DNA of 64,000 nucleotides from Patescibacteria group bacterium (GTDB lineage Bacteria; Patescibacteriota; Patescibacteriia; Patescibacteriales; JBAZCA01): contig JBAZUF010000002.1 of the NCBI GenBank assembly GCA_041661505.1, forward strand, positions 76,201 to 140,200, given 5' to 3'. Of this stretch, positions 14,816 to 43,901 are shown in pieces (within the stretch, counting starts at the first letter, position 1; each line of letters starts with the position of its first letter). Both the position numbers and the translations under genes were made by a program. The notes under the pieces are model-generated. The model was given only the letters and a program-made list of their open reading frames with translations. It was not told where the DNA came from and did no database searches.

Positions 14816-15571
14816 ATGATTTTACCGAGCTCCAAAGACGCAGTCCATAAAGCCTGGCTTTACCGCCTGCTTTCGGCCATAGCCGAAGATAGCTTTTTAA
14901 CCGGGGCTTTATATTTTAAGGGCGGAACTTGCGCGGCTATGCGCGGGCTCTTGGACCGTTTTTCCATTGACCTGGATTTTGATTTACTGGCGCGGGGAGA
15001 TGAGGCGGTAAAAGTAAGAAAAAATCTGGAAAAAATTTTTCTTAATCTCGGGCTGGAAATAAAAGATAAAAGCCGAAATGTTCCGCAATACTTCTTAAGA
15101 TATCCGGCCGGCGCCGAGGAGAGAAATACTCTTAAAATAGACATAACTACCGATCCGCCGGAAAGTAATAAGTATGAGCCAGTCCGGCTTAACGATATTG
15201 ACCGGATAATGAATTGCCAGACCGTAGAGACAATGTTTGCTAATAAGCTTGTGGCCTTAATGGACCGCTTTGAAAAAAATAACTCTATTGCCGGCCGTGA
15301 TTTATATGATATCCATTATTTTTTTCTCCGCGGTTTCCGTTATAACGATAAAGTTATCGCGGAAAGAAGAAAAACCGGGATTAAACAATTTTTTTCCTCA
15401 CTCATAAGCTTTGTAGAAAAAAATATCAGTCTTACGATTATTGATCAGGATTTAAACGTTTTACTGCCTTACGATAAATTCATTAAAATTAGAAAAAACT
15501 TAAAATCTGAAACGCTTATTTTTCTAAAAGACGAACTTAAGAGATTGGGCGAATCCAAAAATTTATCTTAA
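14816..15571 (+). CDS. AbiEii/AbiGii-family nucleotidyltransferase toxin
   Basis: Motif FKGGTCAAMRGLLDRFSIDLDFDL (GGT...R.S.DLDF). 251 aa. Confidence 0.8.
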   Translation: MILPSSKDAVHKAWLYRLLSAIAEDSFLTGALYFKGGTCAAMRGLLDRFSIDLDFDLLARGDEAVKVRKNLEKIFLNLGLEIKDKSRNVPQYFLRYPAGAEERNTLKIDITTDPPESNKYEPVRLNDIDRIMNCQTVETMFANKLVALMDRFEKNNSIAGRDLYDIHYFFLRGFRYNDKVIAERRKTGIKQFFSSLISFVEKNISLTIIDQDLNVLLPYDKFIKIRKNLKSETLIFLKDELKRLGESKNLS

Positions 15572-17155
15572 TTGCTTAACCATATAACTATCTTTCAGCC
15601 TGTACCCTTGCCTTTTATAATACCCCCTCACCCCTACCCCGGAAATTATCATCATTTTTTTGAACCCACAATTCCGAGCGATTTTTTCCGCTTCCATTAA
15701 CAATTTCTTTCCTAAGCCGGCATGCTGTACCTGGCCTTCTTTGCCGATTTGGGTTAATTCGCCGTAGACATGTAATTCGCGGATCATGGCCGAATTAAAA
15801 ATTCCATTATTCTCGCCCGACAATCTTAACCGGCAAAACCCATAAAGCGTTTTTTTGTCTTTTGAATCAGCGCTTAAAAAATATTCTTCTCCGCCCGAAG
15901 CCTTGTATTTAATAACATTTAATTTCCAGGCTTTTGCCGGCCGCTCTTTAGCTTCCCGACAGCGGATGCAATGGCACTCCACGCCTAAGTCTTTCATAAT
16001 CTGCCGCAAATTAGTAATTTTATTGCCAGCCATGATTGATTCCCCTGGAATGTCGCGGATCAGGCGGATAATACGCACGTAAGGCGGAACAGCTTTTTTG
16101 CAGTCAATGATCAGCTGGCGCAAAACTTTATCCGAATAGGGTTTGTATTTTCCCTGTTTCCACCATTTATATAATAAACTGCCGCGCGTTACCACGGTCG
16201 GGTAAAATTTAATCTGGTCTGGCTGGAATCGCGCGTCGCAAAACAGCCTCTTGAACATTGCTAAATCTTTTTTAGCGGTCGATCCAGGAAGCCCGGGCAT
16301 TAAATGATAAGTTACTTTAAAGCCAAAATCTTTTAGTAGCTTTGTCGCTTTAGCTATTTCCGCGACGCCATGGCCGCGCTTATTTTGTTTTAAAATTTTA
16401 TCATCAATCGCCTGGACGCCAAGCTCCACCCGGGTGCATCCGAGTGCGCGCATCTCCCATAACTCTTTTTCATTTATATAATCTGGCCGGGTTTCTAGGG
16501 TCAGCCCGATAATATTATATCCAGCTTTCTCGTTTTTCTTTTGCTCTTTTTCCAGATCGGCTTTCAGCCTAGATAACTGAAGTTTTGAATTGAATTTTTT
16601 TTCTGTTTTATTTAACGTCTTCTGTCCGCTATATTCATTCGCCGCCCTGAAGCACTCTTTGGTATACCAATATTTGTAGTTTACGGGCAATACGCTCCAG
16701 GTTCCGCCGATAACAATGATCTCAATTTTAGTTGGATTATGTCCGTTGGCTTCCAAAGCGCGTAGGCGCAGCTGAACTTGCAGATAAGGATTATAGTCGC
16801 ACCGGATCGCCCGCATTACGGCTGGTTCATTCGATAGATAGCTTTGGGGGACGTTTTTTTCCGTCGGGCAATAGGCGCATTTACCCGGACAAGGATAAGG
16901 CATAGTTAGAACCGCTACTGGCGCGATCCCGGACATGGTCCTTACCGCCCGTTTACGCAGCAGGCGTTTTAACATGACATGTTTGACTCCGCTATTTCGC
17001 AACTCATTTAATATATCGGAATTTTTTAGTATCGGCATTCCGAACATTTTGGAAATTTTCCTTTTAGCCAGCATTAAATCCGCCTGATTTTTTATATCAG
17101 AATTATCCAGTAGATATTTTACGATTTCCTTTTTATTGGTCTCTGCCTTTGACAT
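15563..17155 (-). CDS. ELP3-like radical SAM / GNAT acetyltransferase (tRNA U34 carboxymethyluridine synthase homologue)
   Basis: CPGKCAYCP (CxxxCxxC radical SAM cluster) plus a C-terminal GNAT region (QHAGLGKKLLMEAEKIA). 530 aa. Overlaps abiEii by 9 nt, convergently. Confidence 0.85.
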   Translation of the reverse strand: MSKAETNKKEIVKYLLDNSDIKNQADLMLAKRKISKMFGMPILKNSDILNELRNSGVKHVMLKRLLRKRAVRTMSGIAPVAVLTMPYPCPGKCAYCPTEKNVPQSYLSNEPAVMRAIRCDYNPYLQVQLRLRALEANGHNPTKIEIIVIGGTWSVLPVNYKYWYTKECFRAANEYSGQKTLNKTEKKFNSKLQLSRLKADLEKEQKKNEKAGYNIIGLTLETRPDYINEKELWEMRALGCTRVELGVQAIDDKILKQNKRGHGVAEIAKATKLLKDFGFKVTYHLMPGLPGSTAKKDLAMFKRLFCDARFQPDQIKFYPTVVTRGSLLYKWWKQGKYKPYSDKVLRQLIIDCKKAVPPYVRIIRLIRDIPGESIMAGNKITNLRQIMKDLGVECHCIRCREAKERPAKAWKLNVIKYKASGGEEYFLSADSKDKKTLYGFCRLRLSGENNGIFNSAMIRELHVYGELTQIGKEGQVQHAGLGKKLLMEAEKIARNCGFKKMMIISGVGVRGYYKRQGYRLKDSYMVKQLR

Positions 17156-20284: not shown

Positions 20285-21055
20285 ATGAGCACTCTTCACG
20301 CCCTTATCTTCGGTTTAGTCGAAGGCATTACCGAGTTCTTGCCAATTTCTTCGACCGGCCATCTAATGCTTACTTCCATAGTTTTGGGCCTTACCCAAAC
20401 TGACTTTTTAAAAACCTTTGAAATCTCTATCCAATTAGGCGCTATCCTTTCGGTAGTCGTCCTTTACTGGCGCCGTCTCCTTACCAACTGGGAAGTGATG
20501 AAGCGGATTGCGATGGCTTTCATCCCGACCGGAATTATCGGATTTTTCGTTTATAAGACCGTAAAAAATTTACTTTCCAATATTTCTATTGTCCCTTGGA
20601 CGCTTCTTATCGGCGGAATCCTTCTTATCATTTTTGAACTTTGGCATAAAAAAAGGCCAGAGGTTTCGGAACAAAAGTTAGAAGACATCTCTTACGCCAA
20701 ATATTTTCTGGTTGGCGTTATCCAGTCGGTTTCCATGATCCCGGGCGTATCCCGCTCAGCCGCCACGATTATCGGCGGACTGGGTTTGGGCTTTAGCCGG
20801 AAAAATATCGTGGAATTTTCTTTTCTTTTAGCCGTCCCGACTGTCCTCGCCGCCACCGGCTACGACTTATTAAAAAATGCCAGCGCTTTTTCCGCTTCCC
20901 AATTCAACTCCCTGGCTATCGGTTTTGTCGCGTCATTCATCACCGCCTTACTTGCCATAAAATTCTTAATGAGTTATATCCAAAAACACAGTTTTATCGC
21001 TTTTGGAATTTACCGGATTGCCATTGCCATATTATTTTTATTGGCCATCCTCTAA
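20285..21055 (+). CDS. uppP: undecaprenyl-diphosphate phosphatase
   Basis: BacA/UppP N-terminus (GLVEGITEFLPISSTGH). Polytopic, 256 aa. Confidence 0.95.
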   Translation: MSTLHALIFGLVEGITEFLPISSTGHLMLTSIVLGLTQTDFLKTFEISIQLGAILSVVVLYWRRLLTNWEVMKRIAMAFIPTGIIGFFVYKTVKNLLSNISIVPWTLLIGGILLIIFELWHKKRPEVSEQKLEDISYAKYFLVGVIQSVSMIPGVSRSAATIIGGLGLGFSRKNIVEFSFLLAVPTVLAATGYDLLKNASAFSASQFNSLAIGFVASFITALLAIKFLMSYIQKHSFIAFGIYRIAIAILFLLAIL

Positions 21056-21088
21056 TTTATTAATTTCACTTAACGGGCAAGCAGTACT

Positions 21089-21400
21089 ATGAACAAAACT
21101 AACTGCTGGGAACTTTTACAATGCGGCCGCGAGCCGGGCGGCTTAAAAGTCCATGAGCTTGGCTATTGTCCAGTGGCCCAGGACGGGATTGGCGAGGGAA
21201 TTAACGGCGGCCAAAACCGGGGCCGGATTTGCTGGGCCGTAGCCGGAACCTTTTGCGGGGGCGTTGTCCAGGGAACCTTTGCCAAGAAGAGAGAAACTTG
21301 CGCTCTGTGCCCGCATTATTTAATGGTGCAGGATGAGGAGGGTAAAAATTTTATCAAACTTTTACCTGGCCAGAAAGATACCAAAAATAGAAAATTATAA
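21089..21400 (+). CDS. small cysteine-rich protein resembling the two-CW domain family
   Basis: NCWELLQCGREPGG, RICWAVAGTFCGG and CALCPHY. Seven Cys in 103 aa. The family assignment is from memory of the motif only. Confidence 0.5.
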   Translation: MNKTNCWELLQCGREPGGLKVHELGYCPVAQDGIGEGINGGQNRGRICWAVAGTFCGGVVQGTFAKKRETCALCPHYLMVQDEEGKNFIKLLPGQKDTKNRKL

Positions 21401-21442
21401 CCTGCCTTCGCGGTTTGAATTTAAAATCTTACGTACCAAAAA

Positions 21443-21469
21443 CCCCTCAAAAAATGAGGGGATTTTTTT
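21443..21469 (+). terminator. rho-independent terminator
   Basis: CCCCTCA-AAAAA-TGAGGGG followed by T7. Confidence 0.85.
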
Positions 21470-21470
21470 G

Positions 21471-21569
21471 TGGCTGGGGAGAGGCTCGAACTCTCGACCT
21501 TGGCGTTATGAGTGCCACGCTCCCCGCCCGTACCGAACGGTACGTTCGGGCGGGTAACCAGCTGAGCTA
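21471..21569 (-). pseudogene. aberrant tRNA-Met(CAT)-like copy: 32-nt insertion in the D-loop and no 5' acceptor strand
   Basis: Aligns to the adjacent intact tRNA from position 8 to the 3' end. TCTAAGA replaces GGCTGGG. The insertion lies between GGTTA and GAGC. Confidence 0.75.
21523..21554. repeat. GC-rich palindromic element copy P1
   Basis: CCCGCCCGTACCGAACGGTACGTTCGGGCGGG. A near-identical copy lies at 24773-24805. Confidence 0.85.
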
Positions 21570-21585
21570 TCTTAGATTAAGTGTG

Positions 21586-21659
21586 TGGCTGGGGAGGGGA
21601 TCGAACCCTCGACCTTAGCGTTATGAGTGCTACGCTCTAACCAGCTGAGCTACCCAGCC
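21586..21659 (-). tRNA. tRNA with CAT anticodon (elongator Met or Ile2; not initiator-like)
   Basis: Acceptor GGCTGGG/CCCAGCC, loop CTCATAA, T-arm GAGGG-TTCGATC-CCCTC. Confidence 0.85.
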
Positions 21660-21676
21660 ATATTTAATTTTCTTTG

Positions 21677-21748
21677 TGCGCCCGGCAGGAGTCGAACCCA
21701 CACCACTTGGTCCGAAGCCAAGCACTCTATCCATTGAGCTACGGGCGC
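21677..21748 (-). tRNA. tRNA-Arg (anticodon TCG)
   Basis: Acceptor GCGCCCG/CGGGCGC, anticodon arm CTTGG-CTTCGGA-CCAAG. Confidence 0.8.
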
Positions 21749-21898
21749 GCTTTGCGGGAAATGTTCGCGCAATACTTATTAACACAAACTCGTCATTTAT
21801 AAATAGCCCCGATACCGGGACTATTTTGATATTAGAACAAAATCTCTCAAAAAGTCAAATCTAGCTGCTTTTTTAAGCGATTCTCTTTTTCCGCACTT

Positions 21899-22180
21899 TT
21901 ATCTCCCTTTTAAAGCGTCCTTCAAGGTTTTACCGGTTTTAAACTTGGCGACCGTCACTTCCGGAATCTGAATCCTTTCGTTAGGCTTTTGCGGATTAAC
22001 TCCGCCGCGGGAATGGCGCTTTCTCGGAATAAAAGTTCCGAAGCCGGCGATGCGGACTTCATTTCCGGCCTTGAGTTCGCTGATGATGATTGTCACCAAG
22101 GCTTCAAGCATGGACTCGGCCTGTTTTCTTGTTGCCGGGGCTTCAGCTGCGATTTTTTCGATTAGTTGGGCTTTGTTCAT
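21899..22180 (-). CDS. hup: DNA-binding protein HU
   Basis: 93 aa. MNKAQLIEKIA...GFGTF...R.GRNP-like arm (RHSRGGVNPQKP). Confidence 0.95.
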   Translation of the reverse strand: MNKAQLIEKIAAEAPATRKQAESMLEALVTIIISELKAGNEVRIAGFGTFIPRKRHSRGGVNPQKPNERIQIPEVTVAKFKTGKTLKDALKGR

Positions 22181-22184
22181 AATT

Positions 22185-22240
22185 GATATGAGCGGGTCCG
22201 CACGCTGACAGCGTGCGGACGAGCGAATAAAATTATATCA
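22185..22240 (-). promoter_or_regulatory. conserved promoter plus 5'-hairpin motif, copy R1 (upstream of hup)
   Basis: Minus strand reads TGATATAAT (extended -10), then TTCGCTCGTCC, a 10-bp hairpin GTCCGCACGC-TGTCA-GCGTGCGGAC, then CTCATATCAATT and the ATG. Paralogous copy at 43387-43436. Confidence 0.55.
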
Positions 22241-22253
22241 TTGATATATTGAA

Positions 22254-23060
22254 TTACTTTATTTCTACGAACTCCGTTATCCTTTTTATAGACTTGGCTT
22301 TTCTGGTTTTCTCGTCAATCGCAATTACCACCGCGTTGAATATCGCCCGCCCCCTATCCGGAATAACGTGGGCGCGGCTGATGCCATCCAAATAGGTCTC
22401 CAAAACTTTTTCTTTTTCCACTCCAATTATCCCGTCGGCGAACCCAGCCATTCCGGCATCCGTAATATACGCCGTTTTATTTTTCGTAATTTCTTCGTCC
22501 GCGGTTTGGACATGAGTATGCGTCCCTATCACTGCCGAAACCCTTCCGTCAAGGTAATTTTTCAAAGCAACTTTTTCCGAAGTGGCTTCAGCGTGGATAT
22601 CAATAATTATAGCAGAAAGGTTTTTAGCAGGCAAGCTAGGATTAGCTAAAATTCTATCTACCTCGCGGAAGGGGCAATCGTATGGAGTTTTGAAGAAAAC
22701 CCGGCCGATTAAATTTATAATCAGAACTTTAAATTTGTTTTTTTTCAAAACAAAGAATCCTTTTCCCGGCGCCGATTGCGGCCAATTAGCCGGCCGTAAA
22801 ATCGGTAAGTCAGACGGATATACATTCTCCAAACTTTTTTCCCGGTCAAAGGCGTGATCGCCGCCGGTAAAAAAATCGATTCCAGAATCCATCAACTCTT
22901 TAATCGTTGCTTCGGTAACGCCTTTGCCATGCGCAATATTGTCGGCATTGGCGATTACCAAATCGATTTTATTTTCTTTTTTTATTTTCGGCAAAAGTTT
23001 GGCAATGGCTTCCCGCCCGACTCTGCCCGACACGTCGCCGATAAAGAGAACCTTTAACAT
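22254..23060 (-). CDS. ymdB: YmdB-like metallophosphoesterase (TIGR00282 type)
   Basis: MLKVLFIGDVSGRVGR...NADNIAHGKG. Downstream of rny, as in Firmicutes. Confidence 0.9.
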   Translation of the reverse strand: MLKVLFIGDVSGRVGREAIAKLLPKIKKENKIDLVIANADNIAHGKGVTEATIKELMDSGIDFFTGGDHAFDREKSLENVYPSDLPILRPANWPQSAPGKGFFVLKKNKFKVLIINLIGRVFFKTPYDCPFREVDRILANPSLPAKNLSAIIIDIHAEATSEKVALKNYLDGRVSAVIGTHTHVQTADEEITKNKTAYITDAGMAGFADGIIGVEKEKVLETYLDGISRAHVIPDRGRAIFNAVVIAIDEKTRKAKSIKRITEFVEIK

Positions 23061-23074
23061 AGATTAACAATTAT

Positions 23075-23115
23075 CAATTATAAATTTTCAATTGATCATT
23101 GGAAATTTATAATTG
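23075..23115. repeat. perfect 13-bp AT-rich inverted repeat in the rny-ymdB spacer
   Basis: CAATTATAAATTT (23075-23087) and AAATTTATAATTG (23103-23115), separated by 15 nt. Confidence 0.8.
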
Positions 23116-23116
23116 A

Positions 23117-24631
23117 TTATCTCGCATATTCGGTTACCCGCATCTCGCGGATGACGTTCACTTTTATTTCACCCGGATATTTTAATTCTTCCTCGATTTT
23201 TTTGGCGATGTTTCTTGCCATATTATAGGATTCGACGTCGGATACGGTTTCTGGGGTAACGAAGATTCGGACTTCCCGTCCGGCTTGTATTGCAAAAGCT
23301 TTTTCCACCCCTTCAAACGAGGTGGCAATCCGCTCCAGTTCTTCTAACCGCTGGATGTAGCGCTCATAAGTATCCGACCGGGCGCCCGGCCTTGAAGCCG
23401 AAATGGCATCCGCCACCTTTACAATCACCGCCACCAAGCCTTTAGGCCGGTCGTCATGATGGGTTTCAATCGGATCGATAATTTCTTGGGGCAGGTTGAA
23501 TTTACGGGCAATATCCCGGCCGATTTCCGGATGAGTGCCCTTAACTTCATGGTCAACGGCTTTGCCGATGTCGTGCAAAAGTCCGCTCTTTTTCGCTAAA
23601 GTTACGTCGGCTCCGAGTTCCGAAGCTAAAAGCGTTGCCAAATGCGCTACTTCTACCGAGTGGTGCAAAGCGTTTTGGCCATAGCTGGTCCGATACTTGA
23701 GCCTTCCTAAAATTTGCACTAATTTAGGATCAAAGCCGGTTACGCCGACGTCAAACATAGCTTCTTCGCCGGCCTTTTTAATATCAATCGCCAGCTCCCG
23801 CTTTGATTCTTCAATCGCGTCTTCAATTTTAGTCGGATGAATCCGGCCGTCTAAAATTAGCTTGTCTAATGTCCTTTTGGCAATATGCCTCCTAATCGCG
23901 GAAAATCCGGAAACCGTAATGGCGTTTGGCGTATCGTCAACGATTATTTCGGTTCCGGTCAATTTTTCGATAGTTTTTATATTCCGGCCTTCGCGCCCGA
24001 TAATCCGGCCCTTCATTTCGTCTGACGGCAAATCAACGACCGTCGTCGTTACTTCCGGAGTATAGGAGGAAACGAGCCTTTGCATCGATTCGGCCATTAT
24101 GCACCGGGCTTTTTCTTCCCAAATTTCTGTCGCTTCGCATTCTAATTTCTTAATCCGAATCATTAAGTCCTCTTTTGATTCTTCCTCAATTTTTTTATAC
24201 AGCACTTCGCGGGCTTCTTCTTTATTCATTCCGGCAATTTCCTCAAGTTTTTTGGTTTGCGCCTCCATAATCTCTTTCACTTTGGCCTTAACTTCTTCCA
24301 CCCGGTTAACTTTGTCGTACAAAGCCTGCTGTTTTTCCTGCAGTTCCAAAAGCTTCTGGGAAAAAGTGCTTTCCCGTTTTTCTAAACGCGATTGCAGGCC
24401 TTTTAATTCCTGCCGGCGCCTTTCTTCATCCCGCTTGGCTTCTTCAATGATTTTTAAAGCCTTGTCCTGGGCTTTGAGTAAAACTTCCGTGTGTTTGGAT
24501 TTGGCTTCGGTTAAAATCTTTTCCGCTTTGTCTTCAGCCCCTTTGGTTCTCATGGCCTGCCGCTTTTTCATGGCAAAATAGCCAACAAAAAAACCGCCAA
24601 CAGCCAGAATTAATCCGATTAAATATTCCAT
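23117..24631 (-). CDS. rny: ribonuclease Y
   Basis: N-terminal TM segment, coiled coil, KH domain and HD domain (HHSVEVAHL...LLHDIGK). Confidence 0.95.
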   Translation of the reverse strand: MEYLIGLILAVGGFFVGYFAMKKRQAMRTKGAEDKAEKILTEAKSKHTEVLLKAQDKALKIIEEAKRDEERRRQELKGLQSRLEKRESTFSQKLLELQEKQQALYDKVNRVEEVKAKVKEIMEAQTKKLEEIAGMNKEEAREVLYKKIEEESKEDLMIRIKKLECEATEIWEEKARCIMAESMQRLVSSYTPEVTTTVVDLPSDEMKGRIIGREGRNIKTIEKLTGTEIIVDDTPNAITVSGFSAIRRHIAKRTLDKLILDGRIHPTKIEDAIEESKRELAIDIKKAGEEAMFDVGVTGFDPKLVQILGRLKYRTSYGQNALHHSVEVAHLATLLASELGADVTLAKKSGLLHDIGKAVDHEVKGTHPEIGRDIARKFNLPQEIIDPIETHHDDRPKGLVAVIVKVADAISASRPGARSDTYERYIQRLEELERIATSFEGVEKAFAIQAGREVRIFVTPETVSDVESYNMARNIAKKIEEELKYPGEIKVNVIREMRVTEYAR

Positions 24632-24772: not shown

Positions 24773-24805
24773 CCCGCCCGTACCGAACGGCACGTTCGGG
24801 CGCGG
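24773..24805. repeat. GC-rich palindromic element copy P2
   Basis: CCCGCCCGTACCGAACGGCACGTTCGGGCGCGG. Differs from P1 by one substitution and one 1-nt indel. Intergenic. Confidence 0.85.
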
Positions 24806-28487: not shown

Positions 28488-28491
28488 CGAC

Positions 28492-28537
28492 AGTGGGCGG
28501 GAGAGGACTCCCTGCCTGCCGGCAGGCAGGGAACCTC
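28492..28537 (-). pseudogene. tRNA-Leu-like 3' fragment (T-arm plus acceptor strand) split in the T-loop by a perfect 20-nt palindrome
   Basis: Removing CCTGCCTGCCGGCAGGCAGG (28511-28530) leaves GTGGGCGGGAGAGGACTCGAACCTC. This nearly matches the 3' end of tRNA-Leu(TAG) at 44549 (GTGGGCGAGAGAGGACTTGAACCTC). Confidence 0.7.
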
Positions 28538-28553
28538 AATTGCCTGCTATATG

Positions 28554-43596: not shown

Positions 43597-43606
43597 CAAA
43601 AGGGAC

Positions 43607-43632
43607 TTAAGTCCACAGTTCTCTGGACTTAA
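43607..43632. repeat. GTTAAGTCCA hairpin family, copy 1
   Basis: TTAAGTCCA-CAGTTCTC-TGGACTTAA, directly after tRNA-Arg. Confidence 0.8.
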
Positions 43633-43642
43633 CTATTCTGGC

Positions 43643-43855
43643 TGTGGATAAGTGGGGAAGTTAAGTCCACAGTTCTCTGGACTTAACTCAATCTGGGTGT
43701 AAAATCCGTTCTCGCAACAAGGCTGTTGATAATATGGAGATAAGTCAGGTAAATTGTGGGAATAAGTGATAGATAAAGTTAATATTTTAGCTAAAGTTAG
43801 CCAAATATTAGCTTAATCAATAATTAATCAAATTTTGTGGATAATCTGTGGGTAA
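43643..43855. other. DnaA-box cluster with AT-rich tract (candidate oriC or DnaA-regulated site)
   Basis: Perfect TGTGGATAA at 43643 and 43836. One-mismatch boxes at 43724 (TGTTGATAA) and 43847 (TGTGGGTAA). All share one orientation. AT-rich tract at about 43770-43835. Confidence 0.55.
43660..43687. repeat. GTTAAGTCCA hairpin family, copy 2
   Basis: GTTAAGTCCA-CAGTTCTC-TGGACTTAAC (10-bp stem). Confidence 0.85.
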
Positions 43856-43901
43856 GACAACAGAAGACCGCATTAAGAATAGGCCAAGCAGTTTAGAATA
43901 A

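Follow-up and report, generated by a model that had tools for sequence, protein, structure and literature searches.

A probable tRNA-Met pseudogene holding a 32-bp dispersed palindrome in a Patescibacteria tRNA operon

In a 64-kb stretch of the genome of a Patescibacteria group bacterium (contig JBAZUF010000002.1; "the window" designates this whole stretch), an intact tRNA-Met(CAT) gene is followed, 16 nt downstream, by a second sequence resembling it, at positions 21471-21569, in which a GC-rich palindrome interrupts the D-loop. The question raised by this locus is what such a unit might be. A first-pass annotation had read it as a recently broken tRNA that matters for decoding or, alternatively, as a processing or termination module. 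We find it probable that the unit is a non-functional pseudogene of the lineage's original tRNA-Met gene, holding one copy of a 32-bp mobile palindromic element, here called PAL.

Two alleles of tRNA-Met in one operon

The operon is read on the minus strand and is made of the following parts. A bar between two tRNA positions or bases marks a junction, and L-numbers are labels of fetched comparison loci.

21829-21858, minus strand: putative promoter, TTGACT / 18-nt spacer / TAATAT, from a consensus scan only
21677-21748, minus strand: tRNA-Arg(TCG), gene 1 of the operon (ARAGORN; Rfam, 66.5 bits)
21586-21659, minus strand: intact tRNA-Met(CAT), the working copy, with the putative replacement allele in its 3' part (Rfam, 68.3 bits; ARAGORN)
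21570-21585, minus strand: 16-nt spacer CACACTTAATCTAAGA, whose last 7 nt stand where the 5' acceptor strand would be (direct reading)
21555-21569, minus strand: pseudo-tRNA-Met positions 8-21 (5' D-stem strand and D-loop), TAGCTCAGCTGGTTA, 14/14 identical to the intact copy
21523-21554, no strand assigned: PAL copy 1, 32-bp GC-rich palindromic element CCCGCCCGAACGTACCGTTCGGTACGGGCGGG at 21|22 (TTA|GAG), exact match
21471-21522, minus strand: pseudo-tRNA-Met from position 22 to the discriminator, GAGCGTGGCACTCATAACGCCAAGGTCGAGAGTTCGAGCCTCTCCCCAGCCA, putative native allele (100% identity to L126/L127)
21436-21461, minus strand: intrinsic terminator CCCCTCATTTTTTGAGGGG and T-tract closing the operon (terminator scan; RNA fold)

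Eighty syntenic loci were retrieved via the adjacent HU gene, without regard to PAL. The ancestral order of the operon, kept in relatives, is HU, tRNA-Arg(TCG), tRNA-Met(CAT) and usually tRNA-Lys(CTT). In the two nearest relatives (L126 and L127, with an HU 90% and 89% identical to that of the window), a single tRNA-Met follows tRNA-Arg, and it corresponds, base for base, to positions 1-21 of the window's intact gene joined to positions 22-73 of its pseudo-copy (52/52). Since this single gene is identical to the pseudo-copy over positions 22-73, the pseudo-copy is, on sequence comparison, the native tRNA-Met gene of the lineage, and the 3' part of the working gene is a replacement. The unit is absent from L126 and L127, the orthologous tRNA-Met site being filled in the window and empty in both relatives. 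Among the seven nearest relatives, the tRNA-Met allele differs from the pseudo-copy at 0-2 positions. The allele of the intact copy, which differs from L126 and L127 at five positions, is closest to that of L202 (two differences; HU 66% identical), and its features are found in other distant relatives.

From position 22 to the discriminator, the pseudo-copy shows five differences from the intact gene, namely the pairs 28:42 and 52:62 and one T-loop base. The intact allele has A28:T42, G52:C62 and a GATCC T-loop, the pseudo allele G-C, A-T and GAGCC. The two compensatory pairs had been taken earlier as a sign that the unit evolved as a folded tRNA. It did, the 22-73 part being base for base the functional tRNA-Met of the nearest relatives. 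The pairs are real, but they are allele differences and give no evidence of selection on the broken copy: they look compensatory because the two copies are two functional alleles. The leader 5' of the intact tRNA-Met is similar to that of L126, and there is a weak suggestion that the leader and positions 1-21 are native. The simplest description of the locus would then be a segment composed of 22'-73', the 16-nt spacer, 8-21 and PAL, inserted at 21|22 of the native gene. Window positions 20531-23125 (2,595 nt) are present at 100% identity in JGI contig Ga0172379_10081504; except for this identical contig, no sequence similar to the spacer CACACTTAATCTAAGA was found in any fetched locus.

As described in the first-pass annotation, the 32-nt insert lies exactly between GGTTA and GAGC of the D-loop, the 5' acceptor strand is missing and 16 nt separate the unit from the intact gene, all coordinates being exact; the alignment to intact tRNA-Met from position 8 to the discriminator was also confirmed. 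Pseudo positions 8-21 and 22-73 are continuous once PAL is taken out, the PAL-free junction being GGTTA joined straight to GAGCGTGGCAC. With the 32-mer removed, the pseudo-copy matches a functional tRNA-Met of a relative at 60/60 positions, a likeness far above chance. It is nevertheless broken in the two ways reported. TCTAAGA (21576-21570) occupies the place of GGCTGGG, so that the 7-bp acceptor stem (1-7 with 66-72) cannot form, and the D-arm and elbow are disrupted by the 32-nt hairpin between 21 and 22, the predicted fold tying G18 and G19 into a GCUGG:CCAGC helix. ARAGORN, run with 21523-21554 kept or deleted, called no tRNA at the pseudo-copy and found the intact tRNA-Met only. The Rfam tRNA model (RF00005) gave 29.3 bits at 21528-21471, for a gathering score of 29, in an alignment that bypasses the D-arm and takes GGCGGGG, from the 3' arm of the palindrome, as a pseudo-acceptor with a G:A mismatch. 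The predicted RNA fold of the unit (-57.9 kcal/mol, z = -4.3) is cloverleaf-like, with the PAL hairpin in the place of the D-arm, and is closed by a pairing, considered fortuitous, between GCUGG of the D-loop and CCAGC of the 3' acceptor strand.

Given its place after the working tRNA and ahead of the terminator, the unit is probably transcribed, and then discarded as a 3' trailer. The terminator at 21436-21461 scores as such on both strands. A role of the unit in decoding appears unlikely, contrary to the earlier suggestion, as its transcription unit already contains, 16 nt upstream, a complete tRNA-Met of this type. This intact tRNA-Met has G1:C72 and thus is not an initiator.

PAL, a probable mobile element dispersed across phyla

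The insert had been described as a GC-rich palindrome of 32 nt. Length and composition stand, but the palindrome is imperfect: the outer 8-bp arms are fully complementary and the central 16 nt are asymmetric, which gives PAL an orientation. It starts with CCCG and ends with CGGG, and copy 1 is predicted to form a hairpin in both DNA and RNA folds. Nor is it private to this tRNA, being one copy of a dispersed, cross-phylum element, of which the window itself holds a second copy; from shuffled sequences, the number of matches expected by chance in the window is 0.

24773-24804, no strand assigned: PAL copy 2, CGCGCCCGAACGTGCCGTTCGGTACGGGCGGG, solo, with 2 mismatches, in the divergent rny/infB intergenic region, about 140 nt upstream of rny (sequence match)

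Copy 2 was found at 100% identity in an independent ENA assembly (L206), and a Logan unitig breaks within it, as a repeat would predict.

A scan of one genome per GTDB species with a 24-nt core gave at least 120 loci and at least 130 near-identical copies. Depending on the analysis, 124-126 distinct copies or contexts were used, and 132 copies for the ARAGORN test. Among the copies listed, the length is constant at 32 nt, one A/G variant is common at position 14, and the flanks are mutually unrelated. Counted from record titles, hosts of the listed loci comprise about 83 Bacteroidota, about 25 Patescibacteria of many classes, 4 Bdellovibrionales, 5 Planctomycetota (Scalindua) and 1 metagenome-assembled genome (MAG) labelled Gammaproteobacteria. 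The Bacteroidota include the cultured hosts Zeaxanthinibacter enoshimensis DSM 18435, Zeaxanthinibacter sp. PT1, Cecembia lonarensis LW9 and Ulvibacterium marinum. By tblastn, proteins of the window had only distant matches in the named PAL loci. The possibility that PAL is a sequencing adapter or an assembly artefact was rejected: genomes of cultured isolates contain it, as do many independent assemblies, and the A/G variant at position 14 is seen among them. The abundance of near-identical copies in unrelated contexts, together with filled and empty versions of sites, indicates that PAL is a dispersed mobile DNA element present in at least four phyla.

No PAL copy was found in the viral, plasmid and phage collections IMG/VR, PLSDB and INPHARED. 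In Rfam, no family matched PAL or the unit at gathering score, and nothing relevant was found around the unit at E<=10. The PAL sequence was not found in any searchable paper, and searches on GIY-YIG and tRNA, on small mobile palindromes and on tRNA fragments of Patescibacteria gave analogues only. Outside RNA genes, PAL often lies within runs of 7-8-nt tandem repeats that continue on both sides (many Bacteroidota loci, e.g. L009, L016, L029, L062, L065, L072, L087 and L100).

The insertion sites were mapped by deleting the 32-mer from each copy and comparing the rejoined flanks with 222 tRNAs. Among 126 distinct listed copies, 31 are in tRNA-derived sequence, and the match crosses the junction unbroken in all 31, meaning that each copy is a clean insertion of 32 bp that neither duplicated nor removed a base. 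Position 21|22 (TTA|GAG) accounts for 19 of the 31 copies, 6 sense and 13 antisense; other sites include 9|10, used three times, and the T-arm, used six times (e.g. TTC|GAT). The interrupted fragments have Met, Asp, Ala, Val, His, Ile, Lys, Arg and Tyr identities, and wherever the intact neighbour is readable its identity is that of the fragment. So many identities, each matching its neighbour, indicate independent events. L169, a relative of the window, has a full-length pseudo-Met after its intact tRNA-Met, and a PAL variant occupies 21|22 of the pseudo-copy; the layout of the window recurs independently in L169, L063 and L092.

The listed copies also show a target bias: T occupies position -2 in 79/124 of them, and A position +2 in 72/124. 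This bias persists outside tRNA contexts once repeats are collapsed (T 44/76, p=3e-7; A 39/76, p=5e-5), so that the target is a symmetric T-N|N-A. The D-loops and T-loops of tRNAs supply this motif almost universally, and both TTA|GAG and TTC|GAT fit it. About 25% of PAL copies are in tRNA-derived sequence, although such sequence accounts for well under 1% of a genome (p=1e-33); this excess argues for a real targeting of tRNA-gene loops and against a passive accumulation. An uninterrupted, empty-site paralogue was present on the same strand within 1.5 kb for 26 of 125 listed copies, compared with 0 in controls, and none of the 132 copies is in a tRNA that ARAGORN can call after deletion of the 32-mer. 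PAL sits in redundant partial copies of RNA genes, often beside the intact gene. In one locus (L094, a Moraniibacteriota MAG), an intact 5S rRNA gene at 417-523 is followed by a PAL-interrupted partial 5S copy at about 600-720, so the pattern extends beyond tRNA genes.

GIY-YIG genes and hairpins around tRNA remnants

All open reading frames (ORFs) within 1.5 kb of PAL were clustered in the at least 120 listed loci. A single recurrent protein family emerged: ORFs of about 80 aa, found in 16 of these loci and typically close to PAL (median distance 42 nt); no transposase partner recurs within 1.5 kb. A hidden Markov model search for the family gave 20 hits, of which 18 lie no more than 305 nt from a PAL. 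The family matches Pfam PF01541 (GIY-YIG), and among solved structures the UPF0213 proteins 1YWL and 1ZG2 come nearest to it. UPF0213 is the YhbQ/YazA/Slx1 type of GIY-YIG domain (PMC7017083). Two layouts were observed: a partial 5' tRNA copy with PAL, the GIY-YIG gene and the intact tRNA; or the intact tRNA, the GIY-YIG gene and a partial 3' copy with PAL. Locus L092 has the second layout, with two copies of different alleles, like the window. No GIY-YIG ORF was detected in the 64-kb window at E<=10, and the window looks like the second layout minus the nuclease gene. Relatives of the window with GIY-YIG genes are L140, L186, L203, L198/L199 and L154.

Pseudo-tRNA fragments are present in 22 of the 80 HU-syntenic loci, and in this sample they are found in 6/7 loci with a GIY-YIG gene versus 16/73 without (p=0.0014). 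DNA by the homology breaks folds far more stably than random DNA, with a median of -10.5 kcal/mol versus -3.3 kcal/mol (36-nt windows; Mann-Whitney p=1e-15). Several hairpin families recur, such as TCCGCC-loop-GGCGGA and GGGGCTTCCGCCCC. In L140, a pseudo-Arg has PAL at 21|22, and another GC hairpin is nested at the centre of PAL (about 940-1000). One double hairpin, TCCG(C/T)C..GGCGGA plus CCAGCCT..GGCTGG, is inserted at D-loop position 17|18 in both L004 (Bdellovibrionales, pseudo-Ile) and a relative of the window, L192 (pseudo-Met).

Tandem arrays of two to three pseudo-tRNA fragments were seen in L189 (3430-3750), in L163 (3240-3380) and around tRNA-Lys in L186 and L203. Each fragment starts or stops at a small GC hairpin, GGGGCTTCCGCCCC or TCCGCC..GGCGGA. 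A GIY-YIG ORF adjoins the arrays of L186 and L203, and none was detected in L189 and L163. A comparable remnant is found elsewhere in the window, at 28488-28552 (minus strand) between tRNA-Leu(GAG) and tRNA-Val(TAC): the T-arm and 3' acceptor of a third tRNA, GAGGTTC[CCTGCCTGCCGGCAGGCAGG]GAGTCCTCTCCCGCCCA, with a different GC hairpin at the T-loop TTC|GAG. This same hairpin flanks L044, L053, L078 and L127, in other phyla. A perfect hairpin with an 11-bp stem, GTCCGCACGCTGACAGCGTGCGGAC, lies at 22196-22220 between ymdB and the HU gene, one of 16 strong GC hairpins in the 64 kb.

Other features of the window are as follows. Between tRNA-Arg(CCT) and tRNA-Ala(GGC), the region 43598-43900 contains a 30-nt hairpin, AGTTAAGTCCACAGTTCTCTGGACTTAACT, twice, and two TGTGGATAA motifs, which match the DnaA-box consensus on the opposite strand; from its sequence, this may be an origin-like region. 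A gene at 21089-21400 (plus strand), converging on the terminator of the tRNA operon, encodes a 103-aa Cys-rich protein with a two-CW domain (NCBIfam NF045718, 98 bits) and has no Pfam family in the gene table. Elp3 is uncommon in bacteria. The window encodes a full-length bacterial Elp3, a radical-SAM/GNAT enzyme of tRNA U34 modification, at 15563-17155 (minus strand; TIGR01211, 551 bits).

Origin of the unit and its relation to known systems

Our preferred reading remains that the unit is a dead copy of the native tRNA-Met with PAL inside it. The 3' part of the replacement tRNA-Met would have entered by recombination with incoming DNA. As related loci suggest, its source may have been a cassette linked to a tRNA, a type in which a small UPF0213-type GIY-YIG gene is often present, and the co-conversion that occurs around free-standing GIY-YIG homing genes would be the model for such a replacement. 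The native copy, having become redundant, would have lost positions 1-7 and now holds PAL, which may have hit the native gene first, forcing its replacement, or have been brought in as one end of the incoming DNA, or have inserted afterwards, into DNA already dead. Several points weigh against this reading. A GIY-YIG involvement at the window locus would be by analogy only, and the phage, plasmid and viral collections, from which PAL is absent, point to no transfer vector. A foreign origin of the replacement allele, as opposed to a fast local evolution, would rest on five positions only. Moreover, the 3' part of the pseudo-copy is without any decay (52/52 identical to the relatives), which means that the event was recent or that the sequence is under some constraint, and the unit has a strong, cloverleaf-like predicted fold.

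A more active scenario, which we hold to be unlikely, is a replacement driven by a selfish tRNA-targeting cassette, bounded by PAL and by a replacement tRNA segment, often with a UPF0213 GIY-YIG gene between the two. The native tRNA would be cut or invaded at a loop T-N|N-A, the cassette's own segment installed and the native part interrupted, leaving the host dependent; the window would be the state after loss of the nuclease. PAL is indeed placed exactly at the border between the putatively incoming material and native 22-73, the window, L092, L130 and L140 each have pseudo and intact copies that differ in allele, and in 16 of the listed loci a GIY-YIG gene is wedged between the intact tRNA and the PAL-bearing partial copy. 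Further, tRNA-GIY units are tandemly repeated in L103 and L113, a kind of amplification driven by SegB (PMC13096335), and GC hairpins mark the break points of pseudo-tRNAs (Mann-Whitney p=1e-15). However, the distance and orientation of PAL relative to the GIY-YIG gene are not fixed, 110 of the 126 listed copies have no such gene nearby, and cassettes with the gene and without PAL occur (L186, L203, L198/L199, L154). UPF0213 proteins, of about 80 aa, are devoid of the DNA-binding domains of known homing endonucleases, and GIY-YIG enzymes hydrolyse DNA and cannot alone join strands. The allele differences at 28:42 and 52:62 in the window are compatible with a resistant allele linked to a cassette, and prove nothing. 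In L169 the two copies are of the same allele, as in a plain duplication, and this locus, a full-length duplicate with PAL and a second hairpin, speaks for a reading that we rank as less likely again: a tandem duplication of tRNA-Met followed by neutral decay, later insertion of PAL into dead DNA, and allele differences arisen in place. Pseudo-copies do gather several unrelated, even nested hairpins (L140, L004, L127), which suggests continuing insertion into neutral DNA. Yet this reading requires, in the window, that two compensatory pairs and a loop change became fixed in the working copy while the dead copy stayed 52/52 identical to relatives at 90% HU identity, and the presence of a quarter of PAL copies in tRNA-derived sequence (well under 1% of a genome, p=1e-33) implies strong targeting.

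The undecayed 3' part, the position within the transcription unit between tRNA and terminator, the cloverleaf-like predicted fold with the PAL hairpin for D-arm, the marginal Rfam match of 29.3 bits and the recurrence of the Met and pseudo-Met layout in L169 and L063 could all be expected of a functional RNA module at the 3' end of the operon, acting in processing, stability or termination, or as a decoy for tRNA-binding factors. We consider such a module improbable, and the processing or termination role proposed earlier found no positive support. A functional role is unlikely because the unit is missing in the nearest relatives, each with its own terminator, because counterparts vary in architecture, being cut at different points, placed upstream or downstream of the intact gene and provided with other unrelated hairpins, and because PAL is found both ways round (6 sense and 13 antisense at 21|22). 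Neither the unit nor PAL has an Rfam family. That the unit would be a working tRNA gene, its palindrome either spliced out like an intron or carried as an additional arm, or else a D-armless tRNA, is very improbable. The Rfam alignment using GGCGGGG as 5' acceptor exceeds the gathering score by 0.3 bits, but the true 5' acceptor strand is lacking, and the pseudo-acceptor includes a G:A mismatch and requires an 8-bp G-C stem to be melted. The intron and extra-arm versions were rejected, since deletion of the 32-mer restores no tRNA, here or in any of the 132 copies; 32 nt is also far below the size of a group I intron, and no Rfam intron matched at E<=10. The group I intron of Patescibacteria tRNAs was likewise set aside, the preprint on it concerning position 35/36, which is unrelated to a D-loop insert. 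Finally, Logan unitigs end at window positions 21498 and 21710, as might happen with an assembly artefact or a chimera at repeated tRNA sequence. We give this hardly any credit: the JGI contig, though possibly from the same sample as the source assembly of the window, is identical throughout the region, the unitig ends coincide with tRNA k-mers common to co-occurring relatives, and dozens of unrelated assemblies show the same architecture, as does a cultured isolate, Cecembia lonarensis LW9 (L051).

PAL resembles the smallest known mobile palindromes, yet it departs from each in defining features. Repetitive extragenic palindromic (REP) sequences are divided into two superfamilies by their GTAG and CGTC terminal tags (PMC3733652). 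Like PAL, REPs and REPINs are imperfect, GC-rich palindromes of 20-40 bp, dispersed, non-coding and presumably moved in trans, by the RAYT transposase (a Y1 HUH enzyme). PAL, however, has neither tag, its flanks are variable, and neither RAYT nor any other transposase is recurrent in the 1.5 kb around it in the at least 120 loci. In addition, REP families are specific to a species or genus, whereas PAL is nearly invariant across phyla and strongly associated with tRNA and 5S remnants. The very small dispersed repeats (SDRs) of heterocystous cyanobacteria, which Elhai and colleagues are said to have described in 2008, are reportedly hairpin units of about 21-27 nt. They share with PAL mobility, nested insertions and the absence of a known enzyme, but they are confined to cyanobacteria and have other sequences, and a link to RNA-gene duplicates and GIY-YIG genes is not a described feature of any SDR. 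For the GC clusters of yeast mitochondria (e.g. GC42), mobilisation by endonucleases encoded elsewhere, or by recombination of conserved flanks, has been proposed (PMC4478555). These are GC-rich hairpins of about 30-45 bp in an AT-richer genome, with a constrained hairpin (PMC4478555), as in PAL; they differ in being organellar and lineage-restricted and in their AG target-site duplication, PAL insertions being clean. The lack of target-site duplication in the 31/31 tRNA-embedded copies also separates PAL from miniature inverted-repeat transposable elements (MITEs).

The IS200/IS605 insertion sequences and their miniature derivatives, the palindrome-associated transposable elements (PATEs), do insert without target duplication at a short preferred motif, and their hairpin and single-strand logic fits cloverleaf loops. 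They are, however, much longer and have two different subterminal hairpins, and no TnpA or TnpB is found near PAL, which is a single 32-bp hairpin inserted in either orientation at a symmetric T-N|N-A. The unit as a whole recalls the attL/attR repeats of tRNA 3' ends at genomic islands, where an intact tRNA is accompanied by a displaced partial copy, the incoming part completes the gene and the alleles may differ. It departs from them in having no integrase, a cargo of only 16 nt, a copy that starts at position 8 instead of the anticodon-loop or T-loop, and a GC hairpin at the break; in other loci, 5' partial copies are found upstream just as often. SegB, a free-standing GIY-YIG homing endonuclease of the T-even phage tRNA cluster, cuts tRNA-containing DNA and drives tandem amplification of the tRNA plus nuclease unit (PMC13096335). 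The GIY-YIG gene between tRNA genes and the tRNA-GIY tandems of L103 and L113 are similar, but SegB is a full-size phage enzyme, unlike the UPF0213 domains of about 80 aa in cellular genomes, it has no described palindrome partner, and the window is without GIY-YIG gene. What is new is that PAL is nearly invariant from phylum to phylum and is linked with remnants of RNA genes and with UPF0213 nuclease genes.

In this genome the flagged unit is a harmless relic, to be annotated as a pseudogene plus a repeat and not as a decoding defect. Functionally it is an ordinary pseudogene, and its interest lies in what interrupted it. With 32 bp, at least four phyla and no target duplication, PAL would be among the smallest mobile DNAs described, with no description in the searchable literature or in Rfam. 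Its presence in tRNA and 5S remnants that are beside an intact copy, or replaced by one, suggests a turnover of RNA genes by allele replacement in streamlined genomes. Such replacement affects the use of tRNA genes as phylogenetic or integration-site markers, and explains assembly breaks at these loci. We also put forward, tentatively and with more doubt than confidence, that PAL and related YCCGCC...GGCGGR hairpins are the DNA end of a hitherto unrecognised selfish class targeting tRNA and 5S genes and partnered with UPF0213 GIY-YIG nucleases. If this were true, the system would break an RNA gene at a loop T-N|N-A, install a replacement segment and leave the native part interrupted by a hairpin. 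It would amount to a horizontal replacement of tRNA alleles across Bacteroidota, Patescibacteria, Bdellovibrionota and Planctomycetota, and would provide a function for the orphan UPF0213 proteins. The association with UPF0213 GIY-YIG genes makes this orphan nuclease family experimentally approachable, in cultured hosts such as Cecembia lonarensis LW9, Zeaxanthinibacter enoshimensis DSM 18435 and Ulvibacterium marinum.

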